DNA of 64,000 bases from a virus (IMGVR_UViG_3300012344_000002:9313-73312), one strand, 5' to 3'; numbered from the stretch's first letter, positions 4,075-64,000 are shown. Notes: generated by a model from the sequence alone, not told the origin. Numbers and translations: made by a program.

Positions 4075-4977
4075 ATGATAGACGAAAACTTACATAAATT
4101 CGTTGATACTCTATTTGGAGATAGTCCTTTAGCTAAGTTTGCTACTGCTACTTTAGATAATTCTATGAATAGAGTTATTCAGAATAAACCTACAGTAACT
4201 ATCTTAGCTGATAGTATTACTGAAGATGGTCATAGATTGACTACCTTTCAGTTAAAATTCTGGAGAGCTATCTTACCAGAAATTACTAGACACAGATGTT
4301 TTAGCTTCTGTGTAAGAAGTTCTAGGGCTAATCCTACTGCTAATATCATTAAGCAAGTAGATACAGAGCCATGGGGTCCTGTAGAATTTGGTTCTAATCA
4401 GAAAGGTATGACCGCAGGTAAACCTTTAGAAGGTACAGATTTAGAACAAGCAGAGTTTCAATGGAAGTTAGCAGCAGGTCAGGCTGTGCTTACAGCTAAT
4501 GCTTTATTAGACTTAAATGTTCATAAACAAGTAGTTAATAGAGTACTAGAGCCATACACTTATAGTGATATGGTATTAGCTGGTACAGACTTTGATAACT
4601 TCTTTAAATTAAGAGAAGCACCAGATGCTCAGCCAGAAATTAGAGAGCTAGCAGTAGCTATGCATAAAGCCCTCGATAACAGTGAACCAAAGCTCTTACA
4701 GAAAGGTGAGTGGCATTTGCCATATATTACCTCATCTGATAGAGAAATGGCCACCGTTGACGAGCTATGCAAGGTTTCCTGCGCTAGATGTGCTAGAGTA
4801 TCTTATAAGGCTTTTGATGGTACTAGCTCTATTCAGAAAGATTTAGAGTTATTTAATAAATTACAAACATCAGGTCATTGGTCACCAATGGAATTTGTAG
4901 CAACTCCATGTGATGATAAAGATTACAGATTATCTAACTATAAAGGTTATAACCAATATAGAAGATTCTGTGAATAA
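4075..4977 (+). CDS. thyX: Flavin-dependent thymidylate synthase
   Basis: EITRHRCFSFCVRSSRA (RHRx7SxR), HKQVVNRVLEP, NFFKLR, SCARCARVSY, GHWSPMEF. Confidence 0.9.
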   Translation: MIDENLHKFVDTLFGDSPLAKFATATLDNSMNRVIQNKPTVTILADSITEDGHRLTTFQLKFWRAILPEITRHRCFSFCVRSSRANPTANIIKQVDTEPWGPVEFGSNQKGMTAGKPLEGTDLEQAEFQWKLAAGQAVLTANALLDLNVHKQVVNRVLEPYTYSDMVLAGTDFDNFFKLREAPDAQPEIRELAVAMHKALDNSEPKLLQKGEWHLPYITSSDREMATVDELCKVSCARCARVSYKAFDGTSSIQKDLELFNKLQTSGHWSPMEFVATPCDDKDYRLSNYKGYNQYRRFCE

Positions 4978-28300: not shown

Positions 28301-31300
28301 AAAGCATTTAAAGCAGCCATTAAACCACCCATAGCCATATAGACATTATTTTTCTTCTCTACTCCATGAGAAGCTGCGATGGCTTCATGTACTCTAAATA
28401 ATTGCTGTAATACATTAAAGGCTAACTTACCTCTCTTTTTAGCTAAAGGACCTCCTTTAAACTCTGTAGGAGTTCTTACTTTATATTCTTTACCTTGAAT
28501 CTTAAGAGTAATAGGTAATGATTTATCTACTTTAGTGTAAGTATAATTATTGCCTTTAGTACTTGTAGCTAGACCTGCAGTTGGTTTATTAAATGCTTCT
28601 ACAATACCATCAGCAAAAGAATTTAAAGAGTGGTATGGATTACCTTTAGAATTATTAGGTTTAGGAGTAGGCTTTTTAGGTTTAGAGTACTTATTATTAT
28701 TAATCATATTACCCATATTAGTTAATGTATCTGAAGCATCAGACATTAAATTATTTTCATAAGCCATCTGGTCTATAAGTTTTCCAGAATGCTTATTTAT
28801 AGTATATCTAGCACCATTTACATTCTCTAATGTTTGTGATTCTTGGGTCTCTAAATAAGTATCATAAGCTTTAGATATTTCATCAAATTTAGTCTGCTGA
28901 GTCTTTTTAAAATGATTAAAATCTTTAATTAAAGCAGAATACTTAGCTTGTTTAGTATTATTATCATCAGCACTAGATAGGATATTTAAAGCTTGTTTAT
29001 AGAACTCAAGCATACCCTTATAATGTCTAGTTTCACCTTGAGCATTAACATACTCATAACCACTAATAAACTTCTCATTTAATAATGCAGAAGAACTCTT
29101 ACCTGTAGAGGAATATTCACTAGCTTCAGTAGAAGCACCTTCTTGTGCTTCATCTACATATCCCTGTATTTTCTTAGATTGAGCATCATATAATTTTTGA
29201 TACTGTTTAACTAAATCTAATGTAGCAACAGCATTTTGTACTTGTTCTTCTGATACAGAAGCATCAAATGAAGATTCACCTGTAATACCTTTTACTACCT
29301 TCTCTAAGGCAGATATAGACCTAGAAACATCTTCACCTTTCTTGGCTCTATCTGTAGCATCAGCTATAGCAACATCTTGAACAGTAGTCCATAAATTCTG
29401 AGCCAATGGCTTAGTATTATCATCTAGCTTATCTACCATCTTAAGTACAGCTTCTCTGTACTTAGGTGAAGACTGTACTACTTCTTGAGTATTAACAGCT
29501 AATCTATGGATTAAATCCTGTTTTTCTTCTGGAGTAAATTTATCATTATTTTGGATTCTATTTACTAATTCAGATTGAGCAGTATGTAAAGCTGTAACTT
29601 TAGCAGCCATATGACCAATATCATCATCTGTAATAGTATCTTTAGTTTCTAAGTCTTTAGCCTGTCTTCTAAAAGACTCTTCTACTACCTTCATAGAAGT
29701 ACGTAGATTATTACTCTTAGTTAGTTTATCCTTTTCATCATCTGTTAAATCAGTGTTATCTACTACATTCTTAAAGGCATCCTGTGTACCTTCTTGTTCT
29801 GAAGGTCTTAAAACATTTTTAACAGTATCCTTTAAGTTATTCCAAGCTTTATTTTCTTTATCTACTTCTACCGTATTTTGTTCATTAGTTACAGGAGCCA
29901 TAATAGTATCAGTATTCTTTTGCTGAGTATGGTTCTTAACAGCATTCTTAACAGAATTAAATAAAGATTTACCACCTTTATAAGCCATAACACCTGCACC
30001 TACAGAAGCAGCACCTGTTAATGTAGTAGCTGCTTTAGCAGCATGTAAACCAGTACCTACAGCCTTAGTACCAGCCATACCAGCAGGAATACCAATAGCA
30101 TTCTCAGCAATAGCTTCACCTAAACCTTCTGTTAAGTCTTTATTATTATTTATACGTTTTTCAGATATATTGCCACCAACAGTCTCACCAATACCTTGTG
30201 CTACTTCTTCAGAAGTTTCTTTAGCTGTATCACCTAAAGCAGTCATAGGATTAAGTCTATTTAATAAACCTTTCTTGAGACCTTTACCCTCTATCTTAGA
30301 AGTACCCATAATCTTAGATACAGCAGCTTCCCAAGCACCTACACCTAAACGAGTAGTACGCTCTATAGAACTACGTATATCAGCTATAGCTTTAGCACTA
30401 GCATCTTCAGGAGATAAACCTTTATTTAAATATTCTTGTTTTTTAGCTTTATACTCTTCAGAGTTTTGTAGGTCAGCTTCACTTAGATTTTCTAAGTGCA
30501 TATCTTTAACAGCATCAGCACCTGCATCAGCACCATAAGCAAAGTTAATACCTATACCACCTACTTCTTCACCTACTTTATTAGCTTTAGCTTCTACTTG
30601 CTTATTAAGTCTTGCTTCTATTTCAGATCTATTTTGTTTAAATTTATCAAAATCAGATTCTGTTTTAGTAAGCTTACCTTCTGTTTCATTTGCTTTAGTT
30701 ACTGCTTCTGCATATTGTTTTTGAGCTGTATTATATTTAGCCTCTTGTACAGGTTTTTGGCTAGCTGTGGTAGTAATATTATAATTTGTATCAGCCAATC
30801 TTTTATTGTTAGTATCTTTATAATTAACTAACCTATCAAATCTATTATTAAGTGCTTTAGCTTCTGTATCTAAAACCTCTCTAGAAGGAGTAGCTAAAGC
30901 TTCATTAGTTATTTGAGCTTCATTACCTACTTGGTTCTCCATATAGCTTTGTCTAGCTTTATTCAAATCTTGTGCTTGCATAACAGCTTGTTGCTGTTCT
31001 GTTAAAGCTGCTTGGTCAGCAAGGATACCTTCTTTTTTAGCATTTAACTTAGCTATATCTGCATCTATCTTTTGTATAGTAGCAGTAGCTTCATCCATAC
31101 TGATTTTACCTGCTTGAGCAGCAGCTTGAGCTTCAGCTTTAACTTGTGATAATTCAGCTATAGTTTTTTCATAAGTAGCTGCTTTACCTGCAATAGTTTT
31201 AGCTGCTCTAGCAGCCATAATACCTTTAGCACCTAAAGAAGCAGCTTTACCTAGTAAACCACCACCTACAAAGGAACCAACTAAGGAACCAGTAGATTCA

Positions 31301-50014: not shown

Positions 50015-50209
50015 ATGACTTTTAATCAACCATACTATACTCGTGAAGATATTATTAACATATTAAATATGCTACAAGAGCATGGTAGACAGTCTATCAC
50101 AGATAACTCACAATTTGATGATTCTTTATTAACATCTTTCCTTAATACAATAGAAAATATAAAGGAAGACTTTATTTGTGCTATTCCGGGTAAAGAGGTA
50201 TACCTATGA
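50015..50209 (+). CDS. Hypothetical protein (64 aa)
   Basis: AAGGA RBS; first gene of a coupled plus-strand run. Confidence 0.6.
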   Translation: MTFNQPYYTREDIINILNMLQEHGRQSITDNSQFDDSLLTSFLNTIENIKEDFICAIPGKEVYL

Positions 50210-50409
50210 ACCAAAATAAAGCATTATGGTGTTTATTTTTAGCTTGTGTTACAACAATCTTTATATGCTTTTTAGTAGCTTTTGTTATAGCTATTTGTGA
50301 GTATCATTCTAAACAAAATAGATGCTCTTTTGAGCATACTGATTATTGTAAATCATTAAGTTTTAGACCATATTTAAAGCATGAGGCTTTTAACTATGAC
50401 CTTAAGTAA
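50206..50409 (+). CDS. Small membrane protein (67 aa)
   Basis: GAGG RBS, ATGA overlap, one Cys-rich TM helix. Confidence 0.6.
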   Translation: MNQNKALWCLFLACVTTIFICFLVAFVIAICEYHSKQNRCSFEHTDYCKSLSFRPYLKHEAFNYDLK

Positions 50410-50620: not shown

Positions 50621-50887
50621 ATGGATAATATTATTAGTGTATTTATTGGAGGGGTTTTAGGATTTATATTTGCATTAATAATGTTAGCTAATGCCTTTAC
50701 AGCTAATGATGATATTGCACTAAAGCTATCAAATATGATGAACTCTTCAATGCTAGATTGTGTAACTAAACAGGTTATCACAAAAGAACAGGTACATGAC
50801 ATTGAAACTATCTTTCATAAGCATATTGAAGAAAACTTTAAAAATATTAAAGCATCTCATGGTATTGAAAACAAATATAAAAATTAA
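50621..50887 (+). CDS. Small membrane-anchored protein (88 aa)
   Basis: AGGAGG RBS; N-terminal TM IISVFIGGVLGFIFALIML. Confidence 0.65.
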   Translation: MDNIISVFIGGVLGFIFALIMLANAFTANDDIALKLSNMMNSSMLDCVTKQVITKEQVHDIETIFHKHIEENFKNIKASHGIENKYKN

Positions 50888-50951: not shown

Positions 50952-50981
50952 AAGCTAAGGTAATTTATCACCTTAGCTTTT
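50952..50981 (+). terminator. Intrinsic terminator
   Basis: AAGCTAAGGT-AATTTATC-ACCTTAGCTT plus TT. Confidence 0.7.
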
Positions 50982-51007: not shown

Positions 51008-51568
51008 ATGAAAATAGGCATTACTACAACTAAGTTATGGGATGACAATATTCATCTTGTATTTAAGCGTCTATATAACTTACATAACTATATTAACTTC
51101 TCATTTATAGAAGGAGTTAATAGACCTAATTGTGAAGCTATAGCTAAACAATTTAAGATGTATTGTATTGGTTCTTTATTTTATAAAGACCATGACTTTA
51201 AAAATCAATTAATAGAAGCATGTGAACTAGCTGATAAATGTAATGTTAAGTATCTTATGCTTGGTTCAGGTAGATACAGGCCAGCAATAGAACAAGAGAC
51301 TTCTTATACAGAGTTATTTTCTATAGCTTATAAATATAATAAAACTTTATTATTTGAACCAATAGCTAATACAGGTATTAACTGTGTTGCTGATATTAAT
51401 AAATACAATCCTACAGAAGTTCATATATGCTTACCTTGCTTAGAAGCTATAGGAGAGTCTCCTGAATTTATTTTAGGAAATGTAGTTAATTGTCATGTAA
51501 CGCCTGATTTATTGGTAAAATACATGTCTTACTTAAATAAACTAGAGAAGGTAACAATAGAATTATGA
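51008..51568 (+). CDS. Sugar-phosphate isomerase/epimerase-like TIM-barrel protein (shortened)
   Basis: MKIGI start, LMLGSGRYR (cf. LVFGSPxxR), LLFEP, CHVT metal-ligand positions. Confidence 0.6.
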   Translation: MKIGITTTKLWDDNIHLVFKRLYNLHNYINFSFIEGVNRPNCEAIAKQFKMYCIGSLFYKDHDFKNQLIEACELADKCNVKYLMLGSGRYRPAIEQETSYTELFSIAYKYNKTLLFEPIANTGINCVADINKYNPTEVHICLPCLEAIGESPEFILGNVVNCHVTPDLLVKYMSYLNKLEKVTIEL

Positions 51569-52539
51569 TTAGAGTTGGTATTATAGGTGGTGGTTTTTAT
51601 GGCTTATTTATAGCCAGTTATTTAACCCGTAAAGGCTATTATGTAAGGGTATTAGATACTAATCAACCTAAAGCATCTCAAGCCTGTCAGGCTAGACTGC
51701 ATAATGGTATGTTCTATTCTAGGTCATTATCAGATTTAAAATGCTGTATTAATAATGGAGCTACTTTTTATAAATGGTATAGAGATTTTATTATTAAGGA
51801 TTTTAATAGCTACTACTTAGTAGATAAAAACTCTAATGTATCCTTTGACTCATTTAAAAAATTAGCCAAAGAAAACAAACTTAGAGTTAAACCATGTAAA
51901 TTAGACTATGTAAATACAACTAATGTACAAGGTATCTTTAAAGCTAAAGAATACTCTATAGATATTCAAGGCTTACTAGACCATTTACTTAATACATTAA
52001 ATGAAGCTCCTGAATGTGCTCATGCCTATAAGTTAAAGAACCTATCTACAGGTATAGATGTATGTTCAGACCATGGTACATATCATTTTGATAAAGTTAT
52101 TGTTTGTGCTTATGGTGGCATTAATCCTATATTAAATAGTAGTGGGTATGAACCAATAGAAATGAAAGAAGTTAAACAACATATCTATTACTTTGAGGAT
52201 AACTTACCTAATGATGTACATGCAGTAGTAGATGGTTCTTATTGGAATACTATGATACATAGAGAACCAGAGAAAGATATAACTAAATCACTTATAGCTA
52301 CTAATGTTTATTATGATAATTCAGTTATAGAGATAGAATGGGATAGAGTATTACAGTTGGTTCATCATTACATACCTGAAGTAAATATGTATTATAGAGA
52401 TAGAAAGGAATTTACTAAATTCTTATCTACTAATACTAGACAAGCTTTATTTACTCAAGTAGATAAGAATATCTATACTGTATTTGCAGGTAAGCTACCT
52501 AATGTATTTAGTATATTAAAGGACTTAGATAGTATTTAA
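51565..52539 (+). CDS. FAD-dependent oxidoreductase (DAO-like)
   Basis: IIGGGFYG Rossmann motif, AS-x3-QARLHNG-x2-YSRS, VIVCAYGGIN, VFAGK. Confidence 0.85.
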   Translation: MIRVGIIGGGFYGLFIASYLTRKGYYVRVLDTNQPKASQACQARLHNGMFYSRSLSDLKCCINNGATFYKWYRDFIIKDFNSYYLVDKNSNVSFDSFKKLAKENKLRVKPCKLDYVNTTNVQGIFKAKEYSIDIQGLLDHLLNTLNEAPECAHAYKLKNLSTGIDVCSDHGTYHFDKVIVCAYGGINPILNSSGYEPIEMKEVKQHIYYFEDNLPNDVHAVVDGSYWNTMIHREPEKDITKSLIATNVYYDNSVIEIEWDRVLQLVHHYIPEVNMYYRDRKEFTKFLSTNTRQALFTQVDKNIYTVFAGKLPNVFSILKDLDSI

Positions 52540-52562
52540 AAAGGCTCCGAAGAGCCTTTTTA
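52539..52562. terminator. Bidirectional terminator (cUUCGg loop on the minus-strand transcript)
   Basis: AAAAGGCTC-CGAA-GAGCCTTTT between convergent genes. Confidence 0.85.
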
Positions 52563-52564
52563 AG

Positions 52565-52801
52565 TTACTTAATTCTAGCTGCCTCTCTAGCCTCATCTGT
52601 AGTAGTAATATACTTAGGAGGCTTTTCTGTAGATGGCTTATCATTAGGTCGAGCATGGTCTCTAGCAATACGAGCATACTCTCTAGCTTCATCTGTAGTA
52701 GTAGGTTGCTTATTAGGGATTGGGTCTGCTTTATGTTCTACTTTATTATGAGAAGCTAGCTCTCTAGCTTCATCAGTAGATGTAGGATTACCATTAATCA
52801 T
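52565..52801 (-). CDS. Small protein with three T(T/S)TDEARE repeats (78 aa)
   Basis: GAGGT RBS favours the ATG at 52801; own terminator; repeats are in frame. Confidence 0.7.
   Translation of the reverse strand: MINGNPTSTDEARELASHNKVEHKADPIPNKQPTTTDEAREYARIARDHARPNDKPSTEKPPKYITTTDEAREAARIK
52583..52786. repeat. Three 27-bp direct repeats (52583-609, 52679-705, 52760-786)
   Basis: Consensus CTCTCTAGCTTCATCTGTAGTAGTAGG; neighbouring copies share 24/27 nt; periods 96 and 81 nt. Confidence 0.85.
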
Positions 52802-52826
52802 AGGATACCTCAATAAATAAGTTAAT

Positions 52827-52852
52827 TGAATATTGGTTTTAAACCAAATTCA
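52827..52852. promoter_or_regulatory. Operator-like inverted repeat in the divergent intergenic region
   Basis: TGAAT-A-TTGGTTT-T-AAACCAA-ATTCA. Confidence 0.45.
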
Positions 52853-52885
52853 TTGTATATCAAATCTATTTTATAAGGAATAAAT

Positions 52886-53662
52886 ATGAATGAAGGATTA
52901 AATGTCTTAATAGGACATACTGGATTTATTGGTTCAAGTTTGACCCAAGGAATATATGATTTAAAGATTAATTCTAAAGTTATATTAGCTTATGGTACAC
53001 CTGCTAATATTATTACTATTGCTGCTCCTTCAGGCGTTAAGTATTTAGCTAATAAAGACCCAGATAAAGATGCTATGTCTTGTATGTCTTTATTAACTAC
53101 TGTAAAGAATTTTGTAGGAACCAAGAAAATATTTCTTATCTCTACTATAGATGCTTTATGCAGTACCAATGAACCATATGGTAAGAATAGGGCATTGTTG
53201 GTTCAATCTTTAAAAGAATATTGTAATGAAAAAAATATAGAATTATTTGTATTCTACCTAGGTATGACTTATGGTAGAAATGCTCGTAAGGGTATGATTT
53301 ATGACTTCCAACACAATGATGCTAGATACTATACTACTGGTTCATACCAACTCTACAATGTAAATTGGTTAGAAGATGATATGATGCTATGTGCTGATAA
53401 AGGTATACATGAAGCTGTATTAGCTTCTGAACCAATACAAGTAAAGGAAATAGCTAAAGTTATGAATGTATCTTTAGAAGGAGCACCTAAAGCAGGTGGA
53501 GCTAGATATAAAGTAAAAGCCCTAGGCTTACCTTTAATTAAAAAGGAAAAAGTATTAGAGTCTTTATCTGAAGATACTGTAAGACCTGCAGTATACGACT
53601 GGGATACTGAAATAAAGCGCTTAGTAGAAGAACATGCATTTAGTAAAGACCTTAGGAAATAA
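52886..53662 (+). CDS. NAD-dependent epimerase/dehydratase (extended SDR-like)
   Basis: LIGHTGFIGSSL, K-x2-AN-x2-P-x2-D, LISTID, PYGKNR. Confidence 0.8.
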   Translation: MNEGLNVLIGHTGFIGSSLTQGIYDLKINSKVILAYGTPANIITIAAPSGVKYLANKDPDKDAMSCMSLLTTVKNFVGTKKIFLISTIDALCSTNEPYGKNRALLVQSLKEYCNEKNIELFVFYLGMTYGRNARKGMIYDFQHNDARYYTTGSYQLYNVNWLEDDMMLCADKGIHEAVLASEPIQVKEIAKVMNVSLEGAPKAGGARYKVKALGLPLIKKEKVLESLSEDTVRPAVYDWDTEIKRLVEEHAFSKDLRK

Positions 53663-53666
53663 TTAA

Positions 53667-54482
53667 ATGGATAAAATCAATTTAGAATATTATAAAAGAG
53701 GCAAGATTAAAATAGATGTCATTTTAACTAATAGATGTAATCTTCAATGTTCTGCTTGTATGTTTGGTACTAATACTAATAAGATTCCTAAGTCAGAATA
53801 TGATTTTAATCAATTTAAAGAAGATTTAACCTATTTAGCTCAATGGAAAGAAGCCATACAAGTATTAGTATTCTTAGGTGGAGAACCTACTGTAAATCCT
53901 AACTGGCTCTCTTATATTGTATTTGCTAAAAAACTATTACCTGATACTGAACTTTGGATAATTACTAATGGTTTAGTATTAAATAAACAAAAAGAATATT
54001 TAAAGTTTATAAAGGCTTTAAATGTTAGAGTACTTTTATCAGAATACCCCGAAAATAGAAAAGATATTCAAGAGTTAAATCATAAGCTAGATTTATATCA
54101 TATAGACTGGTGTTACTTACAAGCAGAACATACTCCACAATTTAAAGCTATGTTTACAGCTCCTATTACTACTCTAAAACCTATTAACAAAGATGTAGCA
54201 AAGACACATATAGAATGTGGATATGGCTGTCTGTATATAAATAATGGATACTTTGGTGCTTGTGGTATTCAGTATAGTATTCCTATGAGAAATCAACTAT
54301 TTGGTACTAATTATAAAATAGACTTACTACCTATAAAGAGTATTAAGTCTAAGGAAGAATTGGTAGAGTTACCTATGTCATGGCATCCAGATATATGTAA
54401 GTATTGCCAACCGGGAACCAAACAATATAAATGGATACCACATACAATTAAGCATATTAGGAAGGAAGATTATATCTTATAG
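53667..54482 (+). CDS. Radical SAM enzyme with Cys-containing twitch/SPASM-like C-terminus
   Basis: TNRCNLQCSAC, LGGEP, ITNG, ECGYGC-x10-C, ICKYC. Confidence 0.9.
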   Translation: MDKINLEYYKRGKIKIDVILTNRCNLQCSACMFGTNTNKIPKSEYDFNQFKEDLTYLAQWKEAIQVLVFLGGEPTVNPNWLSYIVFAKKLLPDTELWIITNGLVLNKQKEYLKFIKALNVRVLLSEYPENRKDIQELNHKLDLYHIDWCYLQAEHTPQFKAMFTAPITTLKPINKDVAKTHIECGYGCLYINNGYFGACGIQYSIPMRNQLFGTNYKIDLLPIKSIKSKEELVELPMSWHPDICKYCQPGTKQYKWIPHTIKHIRKEDYIL

Positions 54483-55450
54483 AGGTTTTCTAAAATCTTT
54501 ATAGCATTTGCTTTATTTTTAAATATAAACTTAATAAAGGTTAAATTGTATTTAATATTATCAATTACTTTATCTGGCAGTAGATGCTTATTCTGTAAAG
54601 CATATTTAGCAAATATAGGGTAGTACTTTAATTTAACTATCTGCCAAGGATTAATATCATTAATGTTAAATCTTTCAAACATTAAATGAATATCGGGGGA
54701 AAAATGTATTAAATAAGGGTCACGCTTAATTCTGTACTCTTTCTTCCATAAGAGATGTACTACTAGTTGAGCGTCATCTAAAATACATTTTTCCTCTTCA
54801 GGTATTAAATAACAAAAGAATGATTGGTCTTGTACGTTAAATAACTCTTCACAATCTTTAGACATTTCTTTAAAAGTATTCCAGATATTATTAGGTAACT
54901 TTCTTAAATTTAAAAATCCCATACCTAAATTAAAATAAGACTCATACTTAAAAGTTTTATCTGTTTTTAAATACCTGCCTTTATTATTCATTTTATAGCT
55001 GGTAACAATATCATATGGTTCTCTAGCTCCTCCATAAGTTTTATTACTTTGTATAAAAGCTTTAACTAATTCTGATGGGTCTCTTCTAAATACCGAATCA
55101 AAATCCACTGTTACTAATATGTCATACTTACCTTGGTTCTTTAAATCCTCTATATGTTTAATTCTATCTATAAAGAAACATGCAGATTTATAAGGTGCCC
55201 AACCTAAAGTAATATATTTATTAACATCTACTTCTTTATAAGCCTGAGGCATTAAAGAATATATAAAATGAAGATTCTCATCTTCTAGAGGAGATAATAG
55301 TTTTTTAAAATATTCTATAGATTCATTAGAATCAGTCTGTATTTCCCACTCTACTGAATCAGTGTTTAAATCTTTAAAAGATGATAGACAGTTATAAGCA
55401 AACCATCCATACATCTCACCTACAGCAATACTAGAATATAATACTTTCAT
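54470..55450 (-). CDS. GT-A fold glycosyltransferase, GT8-like
   Basis: VTVDFDSV (DxD), YFNLGMGFLNL, QDQSFF, LIHF. Confidence 0.75.
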   Translation of the reverse strand: MKVLYSSIAVGEMYGWFAYNCLSSFKDLNTDSVEWEIQTDSNESIEYFKKLLSPLEDENLHFIYSLMPQAYKEVDVNKYITLGWAPYKSACFFIDRIKHIEDLKNQGKYDILVTVDFDSVFRRDPSELVKAFIQSNKTYGGAREPYDIVTSYKMNNKGRYLKTDKTFKYESYFNLGMGFLNLRKLPNNIWNTFKEMSKDCEELFNVQDQSFFCYLIPEEEKCILDDAQLVVHLLWKKEYRIKRDPYLIHFSPDIHLMFERFNINDINPWQIVKLKYYPIFAKYALQNKHLLPDKVIDNIKYNLTFIKFIFKNKANAIKILENLYKI

Positions 55451-56292
55451 TAGATACTCTTAACTTTAATATTAGTAGACCAAGGAACCAAGTCAGCATT
55501 AACACAATGGTCACAGAAAGCATACTTAGTATTTAATACTGCTAATATGTCTTCTATAGATTTAAAGTCAGTTATATTAAATAACTCGCTTCCCTTTACA
55601 ATAGGTATATCCATATGTTTTTTATCTGACCATTGATTGTTCTGTACTTCAAATACATTACTACATGTATACAATTTATCTTCCCATAAAGGTACACAAG
55701 CCATACCTTTAAGAAAAGCTCTGCAATCAGCAGCAGTCCATCCTTTAGGACGTTTCTGCCCATTAAGTACATAGTAATGGTGATGGAACCATGCTTGTGT
55801 ATCTGGTATTTGTTTTACATCTATATCCTGCATAGATGTATGAATAAAATGCCACTTAATTCCTAAGGAAGTTAAGTATCTACCTAACTTATCATAATCA
55901 TAATTAGGTAAGTTATATTTACTAATATCTAATTGATAATCATTAGCTAGAATAGCATCTATAAGCTTATTAGACATCTTAGGAGCCATAAGACCATTAG
56001 TAACTATATCTCTATTAAATAGTGGTAAATGGTCATGTACATAAGTCATTATTTCTATAAGATGAGGATACAGTAAAGGCTCACCACCTAGTAAGCCTAA
56101 TACTACAGCATGGTCTCCTTTGTATCTTTCTTTAAGAAAATGTAAATGACTAAATCCTTTAATTACTTTTTCTGGGTCAGCATCAAAGTTACTATTCTTA
56201 GAAGAACATCCATAACCACAATAATTACATCTTAAGTTACATCTTGTAGTTAATACTGGACTTAATACTAATTGTTTTACTTCACAAGTCAT
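55450..56292 (-). CDS. Radical SAM enzyme with Cys-containing twitch/SPASM-like C-terminus
   Basis: TTRCNLRCNYC, LLGGEPLL, VTNG, DISKY, DC-x8-C-x10-C, FCDHC. Confidence 0.9.
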   Translation of the reverse strand: MTCEVKQLVLSPVLTTRCNLRCNYCGYGCSSKNSNFDADPEKVIKGFSHLHFLKERYKGDHAVVLGLLGGEPLLYPHLIEIMTYVHDHLPLFNRDIVTNGLMAPKMSNKLIDAILANDYQLDISKYNLPNYDYDKLGRYLTSLGIKWHFIHTSMQDIDVKQIPDTQAWFHHHYYVLNGQKRPKGWTAADCRAFLKGMACVPLWEDKLYTCSNVFEVQNNQWSDKKHMDIPIVKGSELFNITDFKSIEDILAVLNTKYAFCDHCVNADLVPWSTNIKVKSI

Positions 56293-57261
56293 TTAATACT
56301 CCGGCTTTAAATCAGATTCCTTAGTCCTTGAACCAAAATACCCCCCCTCAAAAGAAGTAGGTACTTTAGCTAATTCAGCCTCAGATTCACTCTCCATAAC
56401 TTGTTGAGTTTTTTCCCAATATTGAGTAGTTAGATATATTTGATTTTGTAGTAATTCTTTATAAATAGTCTGTAATTCACTTTTAGTTAAATCTACCCAG
56501 AAATTACTATAAGCTCTAAAATGAATTTTCTTTTTACCATCTGTTGTAGCTAGAAGAGACTCTATATTTACTTTAGCTTGTAAATCACCATTAATGTATA
56601 AATTCTGTACACTAGAATTAAAATAAGTATCAGTACAGTTTAAACCTTTAAGACGTAGGTACTCTTGTTTAATTTCATTATACTTAGCGGCTTTCTTATC
56701 TAAGAAAGTATCTTCTTGTATTACATTATCTTGTAAAAAAGCATCCAAATCAGCATATAAGCTATCACTAGCTATCCAGTTAAATGGAGGAAGTTTCTTT
56801 AATAGATTCTCAGTATTAAAATCTAAAATAGAAATCTTACCTAATTTAAAATCTTCTATAAATTGATTAAGAATATTTGTAGCGTTATCACGCCACTTTA
56901 AAAATACATTAGCTTCTTTTTTATATGTCTCATTAGTAGAGAATAAATAAGAAATACAATTATCTGCATTAGCATATGTTTTAGTCTGTGCTTGAGTATC
57001 TACATAGTTATAGAACCAAGAAGTAATATTCTTAATTGCTTGGTTCTGAGAAATGTTAATACTTGGTGCAATATCTGCTTGCTGTACTTCTGTGATACTA
57101 CAACCATGGGCTTTAACATGCTGTAATAAAGCTTTACCAATATCAGTAGTAGTATCAGCAATAAAATTACCAAAGTCTTCCCCTTCAACAATTAAGCCTT
57201 CAAAGAGGATAGCTTGTTTTTCATTAGAACACCATTTAGCAGATAAGTATGAAATATCCAT
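56293..57261 (-). CDS. Tail-fibre assembly chaperone-like fusion (middle LD-x2-A-x3-Y...WRD domain plus DUF4376-like C-terminus)
   Basis: YVDTQAQTKTY-x5-CISY...FLKWRD...LP-x2-W, then F-x-A-x2-N-x4-LT-x2-EL-x2-I-x14-W. Confidence 0.6.
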   Translation of the reverse strand: MDISYLSAKWCSNEKQAILFEGLIVEGEDFGNFIADTTTDIGKALLQHVKAHGCSITEVQQADIAPSINISQNQAIKNITSWFYNYVDTQAQTKTYANADNCISYLFSTNETYKKEANVFLKWRDNATNILNQFIEDFKLGKISILDFNTENLLKKLPPFNWIASDSLYADLDAFLQDNVIQEDTFLDKKAAKYNEIKQEYLRLKGLNCTDTYFNSSVQNLYINGDLQAKVNIESLLATTDGKKKIHFRAYSNFWVDLTKSELQTIYKELLQNQIYLTTQYWEKTQQVMESESEAELAKVPTSFEGGYFGSRTKESDLKPEY

Positions 57262-57262
57262 A

Positions 57263-58750
57263 TTAAATTCCTAATTCAGTTAAGTTATATTGAAGAACCA
57301 AATCATTATACTTATTTAAAAGGCTACTGTGTTTTAAATAATCAATAATTTTTAAAAATATAGGGTCTAGGTCTTTTTTAATTGTATCTACATAATTATG
57401 ATACAAAGTAAAAAACATAGTCTCAGGTATGTTTGCTACAAAGTAACCCAAAACCACTTTATTAACAGTATTACATTTATCATTTCTTATATTTTGATAT
57501 GGTTTAGTAGGACCACAATAATGGTATATGATAGGAGTAGCTTTACTGGTTACAGCTCTATGATGAGCAGTAAAGTTATTTATATCTAATAGATATGTAA
57601 TCTGTTTATAAAAGGTATAGTTAATAAAGTCTTGTTCATTATAGAAACCTACATCACCCTTATGAGGAGTACATTTCCATTTATAATATAAGTCTTTAAA
57701 ACTATAGTTACCTTTCTTATAAATGATAAAGCCACCATTAATATACTTAAAGCAATTAATTAATGTAGCTCCGTGTATTGCTAGTATATCTCTTCCACCA
57801 AAGATATTACCTGACGAGATACTAGCCGTTAGTAATGTACTCTTAAGATTACCTTGACATAGTATATCGCAGTCACACATTACAGTAAGGTCATACATAG
57901 GAGTAAGTTCATCTAATATACTCATCTTACTATCTACATAATCTCTATTAAAGTGTAACTTTGTTTTGGCTTTAGTATGATAAGAATATTGAATTACTTC
58001 TATATTAGGAGAAATTTTACTATATCTTTTCTGTAATTCTTCTACTGCTTTCTTGGTTCCATTAACATAGTAAACTTTAAATAATTTAATATCATTAAAA
58101 GCAAACATACTATGCAGGAATACATAAGTAGGTTCTGTGTACTCTATTGAAGTAACACAAGCAAAACAAATATTCTTATTAATTAAACTTCTATCAGAAG
58201 GTTTAGCTAACACCCCTAACTTATTATAAATAAGCTGTACTCCATAAACCTTAGCTGTAACCAGCTCTATACCTGAAAAGCTTAACTTATAATTAGAAAA
58301 TATTTTAGGATAGATAAGTTTTAATATTTGTTCACATCTATCTAAATAAGACTGACTACTTTTAGCTGTAGAACCAAAGGTATAGACATAAGCTAAGTTA
58401 GATAAATAAGTAGCATTATTCTTATTAATTTCTACAGTATTTAACAAATTATCTATAGATGTAGGAAACCAAATAAAATATTTAGTTTGAGGATTCTTTA
58501 AATATACAGAGCCTTTAAAAATTAAAGGAGAATCTTCTGTTATATTTAATTCTTTATCTTTATAGGAGTCTAAATAAGTATCTAGACTCTTTAAAGGAAA
58601 GAATTGTGTAGTTAAATTAATTGTAATATCAGTATCTTTTTCTTTAATAAAAGAATACTGATGTCCTTTATTTAGATAAAAGAAAGCAGCTTTAAAGGCT
58701 TTTAAAGTATCTTCTGAGGCTGCTTCTGTAATATTAATAAATACTTTCAT
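57263..58750 (-). CDS. Unknown N-terminal domain fused to a GT8-like glycosyltransferase
   Basis: SKMSI, MCDCDILC (DxD), YINGGFII, NEQDFINY, IYHYCGPTKPY. Confidence 0.85.
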   Translation of the reverse strand: MKVFINITEAASEDTLKAFKAAFFYLNKGHQYSFIKEKDTDITINLTTQFFPLKSLDTYLDSYKDKELNITEDSPLIFKGSVYLKNPQTKYFIWFPTSIDNLLNTVEINKNNATYLSNLAYVYTFGSTAKSSQSYLDRCEQILKLIYPKIFSNYKLSFSGIELVTAKVYGVQLIYNKLGVLAKPSDRSLINKNICFACVTSIEYTEPTYVFLHSMFAFNDIKLFKVYYVNGTKKAVEELQKRYSKISPNIEVIQYSYHTKAKTKLHFNRDYVDSKMSILDELTPMYDLTVMCDCDILCQGNLKSTLLTASISSGNIFGGRDILAIHGATLINCFKYINGGFIIYKKGNYSFKDLYYKWKCTPHKGDVGFYNEQDFINYTFYKQITYLLDINNFTAHHRAVTSKATPIIYHYCGPTKPYQNIRNDKCNTVNKVVLGYFVANIPETMFFTLYHNYVDTIKKDLDPIFLKIIDYLKHSSLLNKYNDLVLQYNLTELGI

Positions 58751-59469
58751 TAGTTTAACTTCAAAGTTACTCTTACCATCTGTTGGCTTTCATTATTAAT
58801 AGGAACATTAAAGCTACATGAAGCAGTACCTGTTTTAATAGTAACCCATGTACCATTAATATTAATTTGTAATGAATAAGAACCAGATGCTGATGTATTT
58901 AAAGTATAACCTACTTGACCCGGATAATTAGACCAACGAGAATCTGTCCAATTACCCCAGCCACTATTAGTACTATACCAACCAGCCCACGTGTAAAGTA
59001 CATTATGACCATTACAAGTAAAGTTACTCATTACAATACGCATATCACCATTAGCAATAGCAAAGTTATTGATATGAATATTACTTTTAGTATCCCAGTA
59101 GTATCTATATTGAGTTTTACTACCCCATGATATACATACACCATATATATTATAGTTAGTACATACATCTACTTGTTTAGTACCTTCATGTAAAGTATGT
59201 GTAGCTTTATAGTATACATCACAGGTAGCTTTACCTATTTGAGCATGATACCAAGTAGGTCTATACCAAGTGCCATTACCTCTTACTATCATAGGTGCTC
59301 TTTTTAATACATGAACTCCACCATAAAGTATAGGGTCTCCTATATTACCTCCTTGGTATAAAGGTATATAACCTTGACCAGCTACCACAATACTAGGTGT
59401 AGTAATCTTATTACCTTGCATAAACAGTGGATAAGTTGTACCACCATAAGGAATTTTAATAGTTGCCAT
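58750..59469 (-). CDS. Putative receptor-binding/adhesin or fibre-tip protein
   Basis: Aromatic/Gly-rich beta composition (WAGWYSTNSGWGNW); directly follows two tail-fibre genes. Confidence 0.5.
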   Translation of the reverse strand: MATIKIPYGGTTYPLFMQGNKITTPSIVVAGQGYIPLYQGGNIGDPILYGGVHVLKRAPMIVRGNGTWYRPTWYHAQIGKATCDVYYKATHTLHEGTKQVDVCTNYNIYGVCISWGSKTQYRYYWDTKSNIHINNFAIANGDMRIVMSNFTCNGHNVLYTWAGWYSTNSGWGNWTDSRWSNYPGQVGYTLNTSASGSYSLQININGTWVTIKTGTASCSFNVPINNESQQMVRVTLKLN

Positions 59470-59473
59470 TATC

Positions 59474-60454
59474 TTATCCTATTGTTATTAAATATCCTGA
59501 TACTTTAACACCATTACTAAAATTATGCTGAGCAGATATAGTTTGAGCAGAGGTTTGTTTAACATACGTATCTGTAATAGTAGCACCTGTTCCATCTTGA
59601 GTAGCTTTAACAGCATTTGTACTATTGGTAGCATAATCAGCTGAAGTAGCTCTTTTAGCTGAATCTGCATTAGTAGCCTTATCAGATGTTTTAGCATGAT
59701 TTACTGATTGAGAGCTAATATTACCTGTAGTAATAAGTCCCCATGTAGTTACATCTACTGTAACATTTACATAGTTTTTATGGGTAGTATCCCATCCAAA
59801 TTTAATTCTATCAGGATAATTACCTTTAAGAGCATAGGTATTAACTATATTTCTATTACTACTATCGTTAGTAGCAGATTTAGCTGAACCAGTAATATTA
59901 CCTGTAACATTACCAACTACATTTCCTGTTAGATTACCATGAAATGTAGAAGTAACTGTACCTGTAACTGTAAGGTTATTATTTATAGTAACAGCACCAG
60001 TTAAAGTACCTCCTGCTAAAGGTAGGTAACTATTCTTAATATTCTTAATATTAGTTTCAGTTACTAACTTAAAATCATCTATATCAATACCTTGTATAGC
60101 ATTAATCTTAGTATACAAAGCATGTATCTGAGAGTCATGATTATTAACTGTTTCTGTAAGTTTAGTTACATTATTAGTAGCTGTGGTAGCCATCTCAGAG
60201 ATTAATTTAACTTGTTTATTATTCTCTGTTACATAAGTATTATAAGAAGTTACTAAGTTATCATAAGTAGGTACTTTATCTATAATACTTTGATATTCTT
60301 TCTGTTTAACAGTTCTCGTAACATGTCTTTGTACTAGGATTCTACCTTCCCCATCTACCATATCTTTATTGGTATCCGGGTCTCTAATTGGAATATCTAC
60401 CCAATAATCTGCTTCTATAGGAGCATCTAAATTAGTTACTTTATATTTAGCCAT
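59474..60454 (-). CDS. Tail fibre protein B
   Basis: YLPLAGGTLTG, GNLTGNVVGNVTGNITG, A-x2-A-x2-A repeats; paralogous to 60458-61798. Confidence 0.8.
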   Translation of the reverse strand: MAKYKVTNLDAPIEADYWVDIPIRDPDTNKDMVDGEGRILVQRHVTRTVKQKEYQSIIDKVPTYDNLVTSYNTYVTENNKQVKLISEMATTATNNVTKLTETVNNHDSQIHALYTKINAIQGIDIDDFKLVTETNIKNIKNSYLPLAGGTLTGAVTINNNLTVTGTVTSTFHGNLTGNVVGNVTGNITGSAKSATNDSSNRNIVNTYALKGNYPDRIKFGWDTTHKNYVNVTVDVTTWGLITTGNISSQSVNHAKTSDKATNADSAKRATSADYATNSTNAVKATQDGTGATITDTYVKQTSAQTISAQHNFSNGVKVSGYLITIG

Positions 60455-60457
60455 ATT

Positions 60458-61798
60458 TTAACCTACTGTAATTGTATAACCTGATACTATAACACCCGAT
60501 GCAAAGTTATGATTATTAGTAATATAACCACTATCATTAGTAAACTGAGACACCTTGGTAGGTCTTCCAGATACACCACTCCATGCAACAGAACCAGCTG
60601 AATTAGAATAGTTAACTGAGAAATTAGCTGGGTTATAAACATACATGTTTGAGCCATCTTCACCGCCCCATAGCCATGTAGGCTGACCATCTTTACCATA
60701 CCAATTAAAATTAAGGTCAACGTCCCCTACTCTACGAGGGTAAGCTCTATCAGCCGATGTTGCATGAGAAGCATTAATAGCAGTAGTTGCACTACCAGCA
60801 CTTGTAGCATAGTCTGCATTTGTAGCTGTTGTAGCTTTATCAGCTAATTTAGCATGAGCAGCAATACCTGTTAAAGGTAAATACTTAGCTTTCTCTTGGT
60901 CTGTATAAGCATTAGCACTAACAATAGCTTCATTCTTTTTAGTATCAGCATATGCTTTAGCAGTATCTAAATTAGAAGCATTTTCTACTTTAGTAGCATA
61001 AGTATCAGTAATGTCATTGTTATTCTTATCTGCTACTGCTTTCTGCGCTTGTAATACATTATTAATGCTAAGAACAGAAGTAGTACCTGCTCCTTTAGTA
61101 ATAGTTAATGTAGCATTAGCACCTGTAATATCTTTAATATAGTTATCAGCAATATCTTGACCCAAAGCATCTTGGGTAGCTTTATCAGCTAAACCATAGA
61201 AAAATTTACCTTCTTCTGATACTTTAAATACTTTACCCCATGTAGTAGTACAATCTAATACGTCATTATTAGTAGAAAATGAAGCATAAGATGAAGAACC
61301 TGTAGGAGTTAAAGTAAGCACTGCTGTCTTGGGTGTCTGAATAGATACATCACCCTTTAATACACCACCTGTAATTAAATAAGCAGACTTCTTTAAAGCA
61401 TCAACATCAGCTTGTACTTCATCAATATCAATACCCTGAATACCATTAATCTTACCTTGGATAACACTAACAGTCTGAGTTAAGTCACTTAAGTCATTCT
61501 GAGTGCCTAATAGGTTATCATTAATAGAACCAATGTCACTATTAATAGAAGCCACTTTATCTTTAGCATATTTATCTAATGCAACAATAGCTTCTTTATT
61601 AGTATTAATCTGAGGTAAAGCATTTTTAATATTAGCAATACCTTTAGAATTAATAGAACGAGTAACATATCTCTTAACAAGAATGTTACCTTCACCATCT
61701 ACTTGGTCTATACCTGTATCAGGGTCTTTAGAAGGAATATCCTGATATAAATCAATTTCGATTGGTTCATCAGGATTAGTTACTTTAAATTTAGACAT
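60458..61798 (-). CDS. Tail fibre protein A
   Basis: KATQDALGQDI-x3-Y, YLPLTG, ATTATNADYATSAGSAT repeats, WSGVSGRPTKVSQFTNDSGYIT. Confidence 0.8.
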   Translation of the reverse strand: MSKFKVTNPDEPIEIDLYQDIPSKDPDTGIDQVDGEGNILVKRYVTRSINSKGIANIKNALPQINTNKEAIVALDKYAKDKVASINSDIGSINDNLLGTQNDLSDLTQTVSVIQGKINGIQGIDIDEVQADVDALKKSAYLITGGVLKGDVSIQTPKTAVLTLTPTGSSSYASFSTNNDVLDCTTTWGKVFKVSEEGKFFYGLADKATQDALGQDIADNYIKDITGANATLTITKGAGTTSVLSINNVLQAQKAVADKNNNDITDTYATKVENASNLDTAKAYADTKKNEAIVSANAYTDQEKAKYLPLTGIAAHAKLADKATTATNADYATSAGSATTAINASHATSADRAYPRRVGDVDLNFNWYGKDGQPTWLWGGEDGSNMYVYNPANFSVNYSNSAGSVAWSGVSGRPTKVSQFTNDSGYITNNHNFASGVIVSGYTITVG

Positions 61799-61806
61799 AT
61801 ACCACC

Positions 61807-63255
61807 TTAAATAAATTCAGTCATAGATGCAGGTACTAAGTATAACTTATTAGCATCAGTAGACTCATATAGATTAGTTAAAGAGTCTTTAAGCTCAGTA
61901 CGAAGCATAATACCTTTATTAATATAATTACCAATATTAGTAATATTATCCATATTATTAACGGTATTTATAATCTGAGGTAATGCTTTATATACAGCAT
62001 TAACATTATCTATAGATAATCCTAAATTATTAATTACATCAATATACGTAGCTGTAGTATTAACGTTATTAATAGAGCCAGCTACAGTAGTTACATGCTC
62101 TATGTTTGTATTGATGGTCTTAATAGCATCTAGGTTATCATTAATAGCTTGGATACTATCAGTATTAGCTGATAAGTTAATTACAGCATCTTTATAAGAA
62201 TTAACTAATGTAATAGCAGGTAAGTTTGTATTAAGATTCTTAATAATATCAATATTATCTGCTACAGTATTAACATTCTTAATATTAGAACCAACAATAT
62301 TAATATTGTCTTTGTTCTCTTGGATAGTTGTCATAACTTCTAAGTGAGAGTTAATCCAAGCTAAAGTATAGATATGAGGTACTACTGCATTAATATTATC
62401 AATGCTCTTAGAACAATTCTTAATATCTTCTAAGTAGTCTTCAATGATATGTATATCTTCTAATCCTGCTGATACATCAATAACATCATAAATAGAAGCA
62501 GATACTCTAGCAATGTTATTTAAGTCTTCATCAGATAAATCAGGAATAGATGTTTTAGAAGCATACTTATCAGATATTTCACCATTTGTAGAACCCTGAG
62601 GTAAGAACCATCCTAGTAATCTAGAATTAGATACTATAGCCTCATTTACAGAGCGTAAGGTATATCTATCATTAATGGTTCTATCCAAACTATATGCTAC
62701 CCATCTGGTTCCATTAAATGATAAGGTAACTATATTTAAGGCACCAATACTAGAGTCTAGTTTAGATACATCACCTAACCAATCTACTTGAGTAGTATCA
62801 AAAGTGTACTTAGTTCCTTCTTTAATATTAGTTAAGTATAAAGTAATTGTTAAGCATGACTGCTTATCAAAAGTATCAGCAAACTTAAATAATATATTAG
62901 GTGTATTTACATTAAAGAAGAATCTATGACTTACTGTAGGATCAATAACATATGTCCCTGTTGATATATCTGCTCGTACAATATTTTCATCTACATACTT
63001 AAATCTAGCTGCAATAGAACCATCCTGTAAATCAGAAATAAAAGGAACATCCTCTTTCTGACCTAACTCAGTACCTTTCCATACAGATAGTCTATTCTTA
63101 TCATCTGGGTTAATAGTTAGCTGACCAGATAGTCCTCTAAACTTAGGTATATCTGCTGTATGTGCTTGACGTAACCTAAAGTCATATACACCTGTTGGTT
63201 CAATCTCTTGATTAGAGAGAGTAGTATTAATGTCTTGTTTTACTTGATTATCCAT
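61807..63255 (-). CDS. Tail/collar structural protein with about 10-aa N/I-rich repeats
   Basis: Repeated NI-x2-V-x2-VA-x-NI units in the C-terminal half. Confidence 0.65.
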   Translation of the reverse strand: MDNQVKQDINTTLSNQEIEPTGVYDFRLRQAHTADIPKFRGLSGQLTINPDDKNRLSVWKGTELGQKEDVPFISDLQDGSIAARFKYVDENIVRADISTGTYVIDPTVSHRFFFNVNTPNILFKFADTFDKQSCLTITLYLTNIKEGTKYTFDTTQVDWLGDVSKLDSSIGALNIVTLSFNGTRWVAYSLDRTINDRYTLRSVNEAIVSNSRLLGWFLPQGSTNGEISDKYASKTSIPDLSDEDLNNIARVSASIYDVIDVSAGLEDIHIIEDYLEDIKNCSKSIDNINAVVPHIYTLAWINSHLEVMTTIQENKDNINIVGSNIKNVNTVADNIDIIKNLNTNLPAITLVNSYKDAVINLSANTDSIQAINDNLDAIKTINTNIEHVTTVAGSINNVNTTATYIDVINNLGLSIDNVNAVYKALPQIINTVNNMDNITNIGNYINKGIMLRTELKDSLTNLYESTDANKLYLVPASMTEFI

Positions 63256-64000
63256 TACTCATCTCCTGCTTCTTTAATAAACTGTACTTTACCTGTTAAT
63301 GCTTTTAAGTTCTTAGCAGAAATAGTAAGAATAGTACCTTTAGCTGCAAATAACTGCATGTTATCATCAAAGTATCCCTGAGGCTTCTTTAACTTAAGTA
63401 CTACAGTAATATCACGTTTAGTAATAGATTCCTGTATTTCAGCTTCAATATCTTCTGTGTTAGGTTTGGTTTCACCATAATAGTAATTAACAAACCAACC
63501 ATTAGAAGGGGCTGTAAATTCTTGTGTATAGGTATCTATATCTGTTTTCTTAATAGAACCAAGTAATACATTAATTCTGTTATCTTGGTCTGTTAATAGA
63601 GCATTAGAAGGAAGATTACTATTAAAGGTATCAATGAACTTAATAGTCTGGTCCATATAAGGATACAGAGTATTAATATCAGAAGTAACTTTAGTCATTT
63701 GTTTTTTAACTTCACTAATAGAATTTAGTAAAGGCTCTCGATTTAAGTTACATTCTTTAATAGAATCCAAGTTCTGTACTGCACTAATATATGTTGATAA
63801 GTTGTCATATAGAACATTAAACAATGGTGCGTTTTCACTTAATGTTTTAATGCTTTCTGATATATCACTTACATTAGTAATATCATCTTTAATAGTTAAT
63901 AATGCAGTAAACTTCTGTACTAAGTTCTTTTGCTCTTCTACTATCTCTGCAGCAGTCTTAATGTTGTTAATATTATCTGATAAATTAGTAATCTCATATC
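63255..64000 (-). CDS. Tail-associated protein, 5'-truncated by window edge
   Basis: Frame is open from 63998 (YEITNLSDNINNIKTAAE...) into the track ORF, so the TTG at 63824 is internal. Confidence 0.7.
   Translation of the reverse strand, partial: YEITNLSDNINNIKTAAEIVEEQKNLVQKFTALLTIKDDITNVSDISESIKTLSENAPLFNVLYDNLSTYISAVQNLDSIKECNLNREPLLNSISEVKKQMTKVTSDINTLYPYMDQTIKFIDTFNSNLPSNALLTDQDNRINVLLGSIKKTDIDTYTQEFTAPSNGWFVNYYYGETKPNTEDIEAEIQESITKRDITVVLKLKKPQGYFDDNMQLFAAKGTILTISAKNLKALTGKVQFIKEAGDE

Follow-up and report, generated by a model that had tools for sequence, protein, structure and literature searches.

A compact cassette of nine genes (A to I; ~8.5 kb) lies beside the tail-fiber genes of an N4-like phage with a 73-kb genome. 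We analyzed it in a window of 64,000 nucleotides (nt), comprising bases 9313-73312 of the 73,312-bp IMG/VR virus record IMGVR_UViG_3300012344_000002, which has direct terminal repeats; positions below are counted from the first base of the window. The cassette encodes a TIM-barrel protein (A), a flavin oxidoreductase of the DAO family (B), a protein related to short-chain dehydrogenases/reductases (SDR; C), two radical S-adenosylmethionine (SAM) enzymes (D and F), two predicted glycosyltransferases (GT) of family GT8 (E and H), a DUF4376 protein (G), and an all-beta protein (I). Together, these genes quite possibly specify a glycan-building or glycan-tailoring system that is genetically part of the host-recognition (tail-fiber) module. 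The virion or its fibers could well be the target, with the acceptor inferred from gene order, and we moderately favor this target over a glycan of the host envelope. Fiber proteins are the most probable acceptor because E, F, and H belong to the late fiber operon, where H is placed between I and G. As we discuss below, multiple observations point in the same direction: the late-operon position of E, F, and H, the conserved I-H-G order, recurrence of the cassette beside DUF4376 or fiber genes in unrelated phages, and the soluble appearance of its proteins argue for a fiber target, and fusions of D-family proteins to sugar enzymes, divergence of the module as fast as the fibers, near-absence of the phage-type cassette from cellular genomes, and exchange of an H-G-F-E block among phages with 95-96% identical fibers support the favored reading more generally.

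The locus consists of two converging gene sets. Genes A to D are on the + strand, and M, L, K, J, I, H, G, F, and E follow one another on the - strand, where the junctions from E to M measure only -1 to +8 nt. All seven enzyme genes named in a preliminary description of this DNA are present in place as intact open reading frames (ORFs), and the start it gave for A (51008) agrees with the homologue-aligned start. The same description had the enzymes built into the tail operon, which is correct for E, F, and H, with their shared strand and tight junctions, but not for A to D, which form a separate + strand unit that converges on the operon. D and E run into each other at their 3' ends for 13 nt (54470-54482), and the related lineage L006 has the same 13-nt overlap (10966-10978).

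First, three lineages of the clade have differing versions of the cassette. With a slash marking the convergence point, the order is A B [small ORF] C D / E F G H I in the window, A B R' C D / E G H I in L006, where R' is a third radical SAM paralogue type found in relatives, and A B C R' / E' F3 F2 F1 G H I in lineage L010. The I-H-G order is kept in these three lineages of the clade and in L009, a distant N4-like contig that carries an I-like gene, a double GT8 gene, and a G-like gene before it ends; an H-profile scan of viral contigs revealed no more L009-like phages.

Second, a B-profile scan of viral contigs found the cassette core in unrelated phages. L029, a 154-kb record estimated to be 84% complete (a ~180-kb phage) and lacking an N4 portal, has a first set with C, A, three radical SAM genes, and B, and a second, converging set with a double E, a G-like gene, a 263-amino-acid (aa) GT8, an I-like gene, a radical SAM gene, and a 731-aa tail fiber. 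In L030, the C, A, B, and E genes directly abut a DUF4376 gene, and in L031 a tail protein gene and a DUF4376 gene lie 3.4 kb from the cassette. What stays constant is C-A-B together with a GT8-like E, and the number of radical SAM genes ranges from 0 to 5. The preliminary description had suggested gene-neighborhood conservation as a check; the cassette co-occurs with DUF4376 or fiber genes in four of six independent contexts, but not in every one.

Third, the module is mosaic among close relatives. Between the window and L006, the anaerobic ribonucleotide reductase NrdD and the portal are 65-69% identical and the module genes 31-52%, similar to the fibers. L027 (9381-16764) matches the window at 84-91% identity across E to I but has A to C genes of a different type (31-43%) and only a 25-aa remnant of D. 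In L066 (10001-14272), identity to the window counterparts is 95-96% for fibers M, L, and J and 89% for I. The H-G-radical SAM-E block of L066 belongs by type with that of L010 (36-49% identical to the window), its C gene belongs with that of L006, and it has no D gene. Because the L066 fibers are near-identical to those of the window and its H-G-radical SAM-E block is of another type, sequence comparison indicates that the enzyme block is exchanged as a unit among phages with nearly the same fibers, with G traveling with the enzymes. Such swapping fits variable glycan types. The contig that contains L027, L002, L004, and L018 (IMGVR_UViG_3300037400_005024) is 158 kb long, about twice the ~72 kb of other genomes of the clade, and may be a concatemer or a chimeric assembly.

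Features of the cassette and the adjoining fiber operon
Gene	Position	Strand	Length (aa)	Product
A	51008..51568 (or from 50993)	+	186-191	Xylose-isomerase-like TIM-barrel protein, ketose-3-epimerase-like
B	51565..52539	+	324	DAO-family FAD-dependent oxidoreductase
Small antisense ORF	52565..52813	-	82	Three T(T/S)TDEARE repeats; membership in the system uncertain
C	52886..53662	+	258	SDR-like NAD(P)-binding protein, resembling nucleoside diphosphate (NDP)-sugar epimerases/reductases
D	53667..54482	+	271	Radical SAM enzyme with twitch-type Cys pattern
E	54470..55450	-	326	Predicted GT8-fold retaining glycosyltransferase with basic C-terminal helical tail
F	55450..56292	-	280	Second radical SAM enzyme, paralogue of D
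G	56293..57261	-	322	DUF4376 protein
H	57263..58750	-		GT8 glycosyltransferase (residues ~200-430) behind a degenerate N-terminal GT8-like domain
I	58750..59469	-	239	All-beta protein; putative fiber-tip or virion protein
J and K	59474..61798	-		Two tail-fiber-like proteins
L and M	61807..63998	-		Tail appendage/fiber proteins upstream in the operon; M is cut by the window end

The sequences of E and H suggest two active GT8-type retaining glycosyltransferases. H matches the Pfam model Glyco_transf_8 (PF01501) at 24.7 bits (cut-off 24.3) over profile positions 9-251 of 253, and an alignment of 10 sequences, reaching down to 30% identity, shows no variation in the motifs D293xD295, YINGGF, NEQDFIN, and H410..G413..K416-P417, so the earlier assignment of H to GT8 stands, with every signature motif kept. 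Residues 1-195 of H can be aligned to a further GT8 domain that retains the motifs in relatives of 627-641 aa, but DxD and the other motifs are gone from this part of H; the N-terminal region is an apparent pseudo-enzyme domain, degenerate and GT8-like. E is the more distant of the two. No Pfam model matched E, PF01501 matched neither E nor 14 family members at E <= 0.05, and an hhalign comparison of E with H returned a probability of 2.7%, with no detectable homology. Because sequence profiles do not connect E to H, its assignment rests on fold and motifs; sequence-profile searches of the PDB with E and H returned nothing, and a language-model search for E pointed to GT8. Six positions, including D116, D118, N174, G176, and H249, are invariant in 14 diverse E sequences. 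An AlphaFold model of E (predicted local distance difference test score, pLDDT, 87.7) gave Foldseek matches to XXYLT1, WbbM, LARGE1, and LgtC with E-values of 1e-9 to 1e-7, and VIA-align superposed it on LgtC (Z 20.9, root-mean-square deviation 3.4 Å over 256 residues), glycogenin (Z 19.1), and XXYLT1 (Z 18.9), as well as on UGGT and GlyE. LgtC is the top match but lies within 1 Z unit of WbbM, LARGE1, and UGGT. The modeled structure indicates that E is a GT8-fold retaining glycosyltransferase; the preliminary GT8 label for E thus holds for the GT-A fold and the DxD motif but does not extend to a match with the PF01501 sequence model. Compared with known GT8 enzymes (LgtC, glycogenin, XXYLT1, and GlyE), E shares the fold at Z 17-21 and the DxD, NxG, Q, and H positions, and H shares DxD, NxG, (D/E)QD, and H...KP; the two proteins differ from these enzymes in that E is beyond the reach of PF01501 and H carries its degenerate second domain.

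D and F score 54.3 and 33.2 bits, respectively, against the Radical_SAM Pfam model (cut-off 29.5), and the cysteines of the CxxxCxxC cluster motif are invariant (C24/C28/C31 in D; C18/C22/C25 in F), as expected if both are radical SAM enzymes, as first proposed. The two are paralogues with 28% identity and a common cysteine pattern. D, F, and R' share four more invariant cysteines (C...C...CxxC), the pattern expected for one auxiliary cluster of the twitch type. Among 2790 relatives of D, cysteines are conserved at positions 184, 188, 199, 244, and 247, and some family members are fusion proteins that also carry a GT2, PglD_N, DUF6716, or sugar C-methyltransferase domain. NeoN and HygY are twitch radical SAM sugar enzymes. 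Among solved structures, PDB 7WZV is closest to the D family, whose profile matches it over the full length (E 4e-26). A motif position hints that 7WZV might be the aminoglycoside epimerase NeoN; literature searches on its identity found nothing. The match to BtrN (E 6e-10) covers the N-terminal core only. D and F resemble twitch sugar enzymes and 7WZV in size (~270 aa) and in pairing CxxxCxxC with a C...C...CxxC set that might ligate one auxiliary 4Fe-4S cluster in a putative C-terminal partial-SPASM (twitch) domain. Neither protein reaches the 170-bit cut-off of the NCBIfam model NF033640 (N_Twi_rSAM), with D at 30.2 and F at 29.8 bits, and 44 of 62 D-family members match this model only weakly.

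Genes A, B, and C form a trio with counterparts in bacteria. A matches Pfam AP_endonuc_2 (PF01261) at 14.9 bits (E 0.021), below the cut-off of 31.1, and a sequence-profile search of the PDB with A found nothing. Its assignment was resolved because a cellular TIM-barrel family of 259-272 aa, one member of which matches D-allulose, tagatose, and ribulose 3-epimerases in the PDB, aligns with the A family in hhalign at 98.2% probability (E 3e-14). By this profile comparison, A is homologous to xylose-isomerase-like TIM barrels, as the preliminary description had it; family members are short (186-233 aa) and a full barrel is unproven. B scores 27.9 bits against DAO, exactly the cut-off, over its N-terminal 60 aa only, but it carries the motif GGGFYG (a GxGxxG dinucleotide fold), its profile aligns with NikD over residues 125-217 and also with glycine oxidases, and cellular homologues of B reach DAO at down to 9.9e-16, all of which agrees with the FAD oxidoreductase originally named. 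C, described earlier as an NAD epimerase, has the Rossmann motif TGFIGSS, and its best PDB profile matches are GalE and CapD, both weak. Its score against Pfam Epimerase (14.5 bits, E 0.024) is under the cut-off of 20.9, however, and its catalytic motif, invariant in three lineages, is Y98-x-x-N-R102, that is YxxxR in place of YxxxK. On these motifs C is SDR-like, not a canonical extended SDR member.

Among 185,579 species genomes, a single one yielded a close B homologue, located on a 19-kb contig that belongs to a fecal metagenome-assembled genome (MAG) of the Bacilli. Besides the B homologue, this contig (L021) encodes a 559-aa double E-like protein and six radical SAM-like ORFs, five of which match D/R' profiles strongly and one of which matches F weakly; its neighbors include two paralogous phrog_17273 proteins of unknown function, and L021 may itself come from a phage or prophage that ended up in the MAG during binning. 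In a set of 400 genomes of the same phylum, 8 carry more distant B-like genes (370-395 aa). In these cellular loci (L057-L063), the B-like gene is within one or two genes of an SDR gene, whose product carries an Epimerase or RmlD_sub_bind domain, and of a gene for a 259-272-aa protein. A Pfam tally of 46 neighboring proteins gave GT2 in 11, DAO in 6, and AP_endonuc_2 in 5, and the loci also hold Epimerase/RmlD, GT1/4, Wzy_C, flippase-like MurJ, NTP_transferase, and DegT domains. A DAO-like/TIM-barrel/SDR trio thus recurs in polysaccharide biosynthesis operons of low-GC bacteria; to our knowledge its function is uncharacterized. The same three families are adjacent in the phage and in the cellular loci, but the cellular proteins are longer (370-395, 259-272, and 302-311 aa), and GT2, GT1/4, Wzy, and flippase genes surround them, with no GT8 and no D-family radical SAM found there. 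Because of this adjacency and the hhalign match of the A family, phage A-B-C is, as far as homology can tell, a shortened copy of a trio from bacterial surface-glycan synthesis.

Genes G and I flank H. G matches Pfam DUF4376 at 25.6 bits (cut-off 25) and a PHROG tail-fiber family. DUF4376 is a domain of the tail-fiber chaperones of phages V22 (gp27) and A5 (gp9) (PMC7289586, PMC10579305). G resembles the corresponding gene of the Alteromonas schitovirus A5 in lying at the end of the fiber genes, and the modules of A5 and of the myovirus V22, like those of the N4-like clade and L029 here, are host-recognition modules common to unrelated phage types (PMC10579305, PMC7289586). The arrangement differs in that the chaperone directly follows a fiber there, whereas the gene directly upstream of G is that of the GT8 enzyme H, not a fiber, and G is co-transferred with the enzymes and not with the fibers. 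The model of I (pLDDT 92.3) has an N-terminal beta region and a beta-sandwich at residues 79-239. Fold searches with Foldseek (PDB and viral libraries) and wide VIA-align comparisons found only generic beta-sandwiches (Z <= 5.7), and a protein atlas search gave nothing. The I family comprises 106 clusters, all within this phage clade, and its partnership with H and G is conserved; I is a putative protein of the fiber tip or virion. When the A to I sequences were read by eye, no obvious hydrophobic N-terminal or membrane-spanning segments were seen.

The enzymes assort into a plausible pathway. The phage would start from host nucleotide sugars or glycans, because no sugar nucleotidyltransferase was found in it. 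B could oxidize a sugar hydroxyl to a keto group, A could epimerize the position next to the carbonyl, and C could reduce the keto group again, an oxidize-isomerize-reduce route whose logic would be analogous to that of DprE1/DprE2. The radical SAM enzymes might add radical epimerization, dehydrogenation, or deoxygenation, and E and H, with two to three GT8 domains between them, would transfer the sugar in an alpha linkage. The glycan would be attached in the cytoplasm, ahead of assembly, to fiber proteins of the phage itself (I, J, K, or G), and swappable enzyme alleles would yield different virion glycans. A more specific proposal, which we offer tentatively and hold to be somewhat doubtful, is that an N4-family podovirus glycosylates its own fibers or DUF4376 cap protein by a self-encoded rare-sugar pathway, combining oxygen-sensitive twitch radical SAM enzymes with a flavin/TIM-barrel/SDR trio, and that separate exchange of the H-G-F-E and A-B-C blocks creates virion 'glycotypes'.

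Several observations weigh against a virion target. A to D share a strand with replication-phase genes, and L030 likewise has replication genes close to its cassette. In L032 and L028, the cassette is near exonuclease, tape-measure-like, sheath-stabilizer, and topoisomerase genes, and no fiber neighbor was seen. The H-G-F-E block swaps independently of I and J, which argues that neither G nor H is tightly matched to one fiber sequence. The cellular A-B-C homologues reside in envelope polysaccharide loci with Wzy, flippase, and GT2 genes, and the top fold match of E is a lipooligosaccharide enzyme, LgtC, whose membrane anchor the basic, amphipathic C-terminal tail of E resembles.

The cassette could instead remodel a glycan of the host envelope that serves as phage receptor (lipopolysaccharide (LPS) core or O-chain, capsule, or another lipid-linked glycan), an alternative that is possible but for which we see a less than even case. 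The benefit would be to block superinfection or to keep progeny off debris, and the linkage to fiber genes might follow, since a receptor-binding protein must match a receptor-masking function; in phage T5, llp next to pb5 illustrates the logic of linking receptor masking to receptor binding. Bacterial GT8 enzymes are mainly LPS enzymes, and it is with LgtC that E aligns best (Z 20.9); its C-terminal 61 aa have an isoelectric point of 9.9; the bacterial trio has GT2 (11 proteins), Wzy_C, a MurJ-like flippase, NTP_transferase, and DegT as neighbors; and the cassettes of L030, L028, and L032 lie near replication or non-fiber genes. By contrast, the H, E, and F genes share their transcription with late structural genes, and in a lytic cycle this timing is late for surface remodeling. 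No gene of the cassette codes for a flippase, polymerase, or membrane protein, cellular genomes almost entirely lack the phage-type cassette (1 in 185,579), and a GT8 gene lies between structural-looking and fiber-chaperone-type genes in four lineages. The authors of a study of comparable fiber/GT8/radical SAM regions read these as modifying the host O-chain and favored host modification for GT8-rich fiber regions (PMC7029224).

The radical SAM enzymes raise the alternative, which we regard as improbable, that the product is soluble or not a glycoprotein: a modified nucleotide sugar or small glycoside directed at host metabolism or defense, or a protein or peptide, such as the product of the small repeat ORF, modified directly by the radical SAM enzymes and glycosylated by the GT8 enzymes. 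The best NCBIfam partial matches of F are maturases of ribosomally synthesized and post-translationally modified peptides (RiPPs), namely lachnocin and CcpM maturases, and D matches YydG in the PDB, in both cases over the N-terminal core only; the number of radical SAM genes varies from 0 to 5; and the cassette contains a Thr-rich ORF with TTTDEARE repeats. The frame of this small ORF (52565-52813) is open in all close relatives, but its amino-acid identity (92-95%) is about the nucleotide identity (93-95%), so there is no excess of protein-level conservation, and the ORF is limited to one lineage. Its slot in L006 is occupied by a radical SAM gene, and a search of the B-C gap of the window for a remnant of that gene found none. 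The radical SAM enzymes, at 271-280 aa, are too short to hold a RiPP recognition element (RRE) or other leader-recognition extension, fusions within the D family are to sugar enzymes, and the constant core of C-A-B plus GT8 includes no peptide. A RiPP-type reading of the radical SAM enzymes was considered and ranked low.

Glycosylation of phage DNA, which the preliminary description listed as an alternative, is very improbable. DNA is the classical target of phage glycosyltransferases, and A to D share a strand with the NrdD, NrdG, and dUTPase genes. The phage has ThyX (4075-4977, +), however, and no ThyA-type hydroxymethylase was found in its genome, so there is no evident hydroxymethyl-pyrimidine acceptor. 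The transferases are in the late fiber operon, and we know of no GT8 enzyme that acts on DNA.

Upstream in the fiber operon, J and K are alike in their N-terminal ~60 aa and in their last 21 aa (62% identical) but different in between in a pairwise BLAST alignment, a pattern that suggests two alternative fibers on one anchor. L matches PHROG appendage and tail-fiber families. L/M homologues follow terminase and SU10-type adaptor genes in L006, L009, and L066, and in relatives the J/K genes come after the adaptor and L/M genes. On the other side of the cassette, A is preceded by genes for two small + strand proteins with hydrophobic, membrane-like segments (50206-50409 and 50621-50887), and a hairpin (50952-50979) with a 10-bp stem, followed by a T-rich run, lies immediately upstream of the A start. 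A promoter scan of the locus gave fewer matches than shuffled sequence and was uninformative.

The phage was described at the outset as N4-like, and its genome bears this out. A 4157-aa ORF (19363-31836, -) has the size of the giant virion RNA polymerase that characterizes the Schitoviridae, the portal is of the N4 type (phrog_1216, 2e-242), the major capsid protein matches phrog_1357, and the portal is up to 60% identical to those of isolated N4-like phages. GC content is ~31%, and the phage encodes an anaerobic ribonucleotide reductase (NrdD/NrdG) and a dUTPase. Wastewater metagenomes of several studies hold near-identical sequence, with 0.39 of sampled words present in the best run. Megablast and tblastn searches of 50,697 phage records gave no match for the region or for H, F, and B, although near-identical records may have been hidden, and D produced weak partial matches only.

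Mycobacteriophages provide a precedent for virion glycosylation, with the capsid and tail tube as targets; Freeman et al., in 2023, reportedly described O-glycosylation operons in Che8, Corndog, and Myrna. The likeness lies in phage glycosyltransferases acting on the phage's own structural proteins, which was shown there and is proposed here from genes alone; the hosts there are actinobacteria and the phages are of other types. Radical SAM, flavoprotein, or TIM-barrel tailoring enzymes are not known from the mycobacteriophage operons.

A closer parallel in gene content is the hypervariable host recognition cluster (HRC) of pelagimyophages and cyanomyophages, in which fibers are combined with GT8 genes, the commonest GT family there, and radical SAM cassettes (Zaragoza-Solas et al., 2020; PMC7029224). 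There, as here, fiber genes are mixed with GT8 and radical SAM genes that come and go among close relatives (PMC7029224). The HRC regions, however, are 35-45-kb islands in T4-like marine myophages, described at the level of annotation, whereas the cassette in this N4-like wastewater podovirus spans ~8.5 kb and has a defined core (SDR, TIM barrel, DAO, and GT8-like proteins), with a GT8 gene wedged between a structural-looking protein and a DUF4376 gene. The preliminary description knew of no such pathway in Schitoviridae. The cassette is new for N4-like phages, but the fiber/GT8/radical SAM pattern had been published for marine myophages (PMC7029224), which tempers a claim of full novelty. New here are the compact, delimited core in an N4-like phage and its bacterial counterpart trio.

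Fiber-adjacent islands of glycosyltransferase and radical SAM genes are turning up in many uncultured phages. The natural allele swaps in near-identical phages and the delimited core described here make the question of the target, virion or host surface, directly testable. The A-B-C trio also suggests that loci for envelope polysaccharides in bacteria encode an uncharacterized sugar-epimerization route. Should the cassette act on the host surface, it would be a lytic phage's means of masking receptors in a way that is new. If the fibers are glycosylated, predictions of host range and phage engineering would have to take glycans into account, and virion glycotypes, if they exist, would constitute a layer of host-range or defense-evasion variation not yet described for phages of Gram-negative bacteria.

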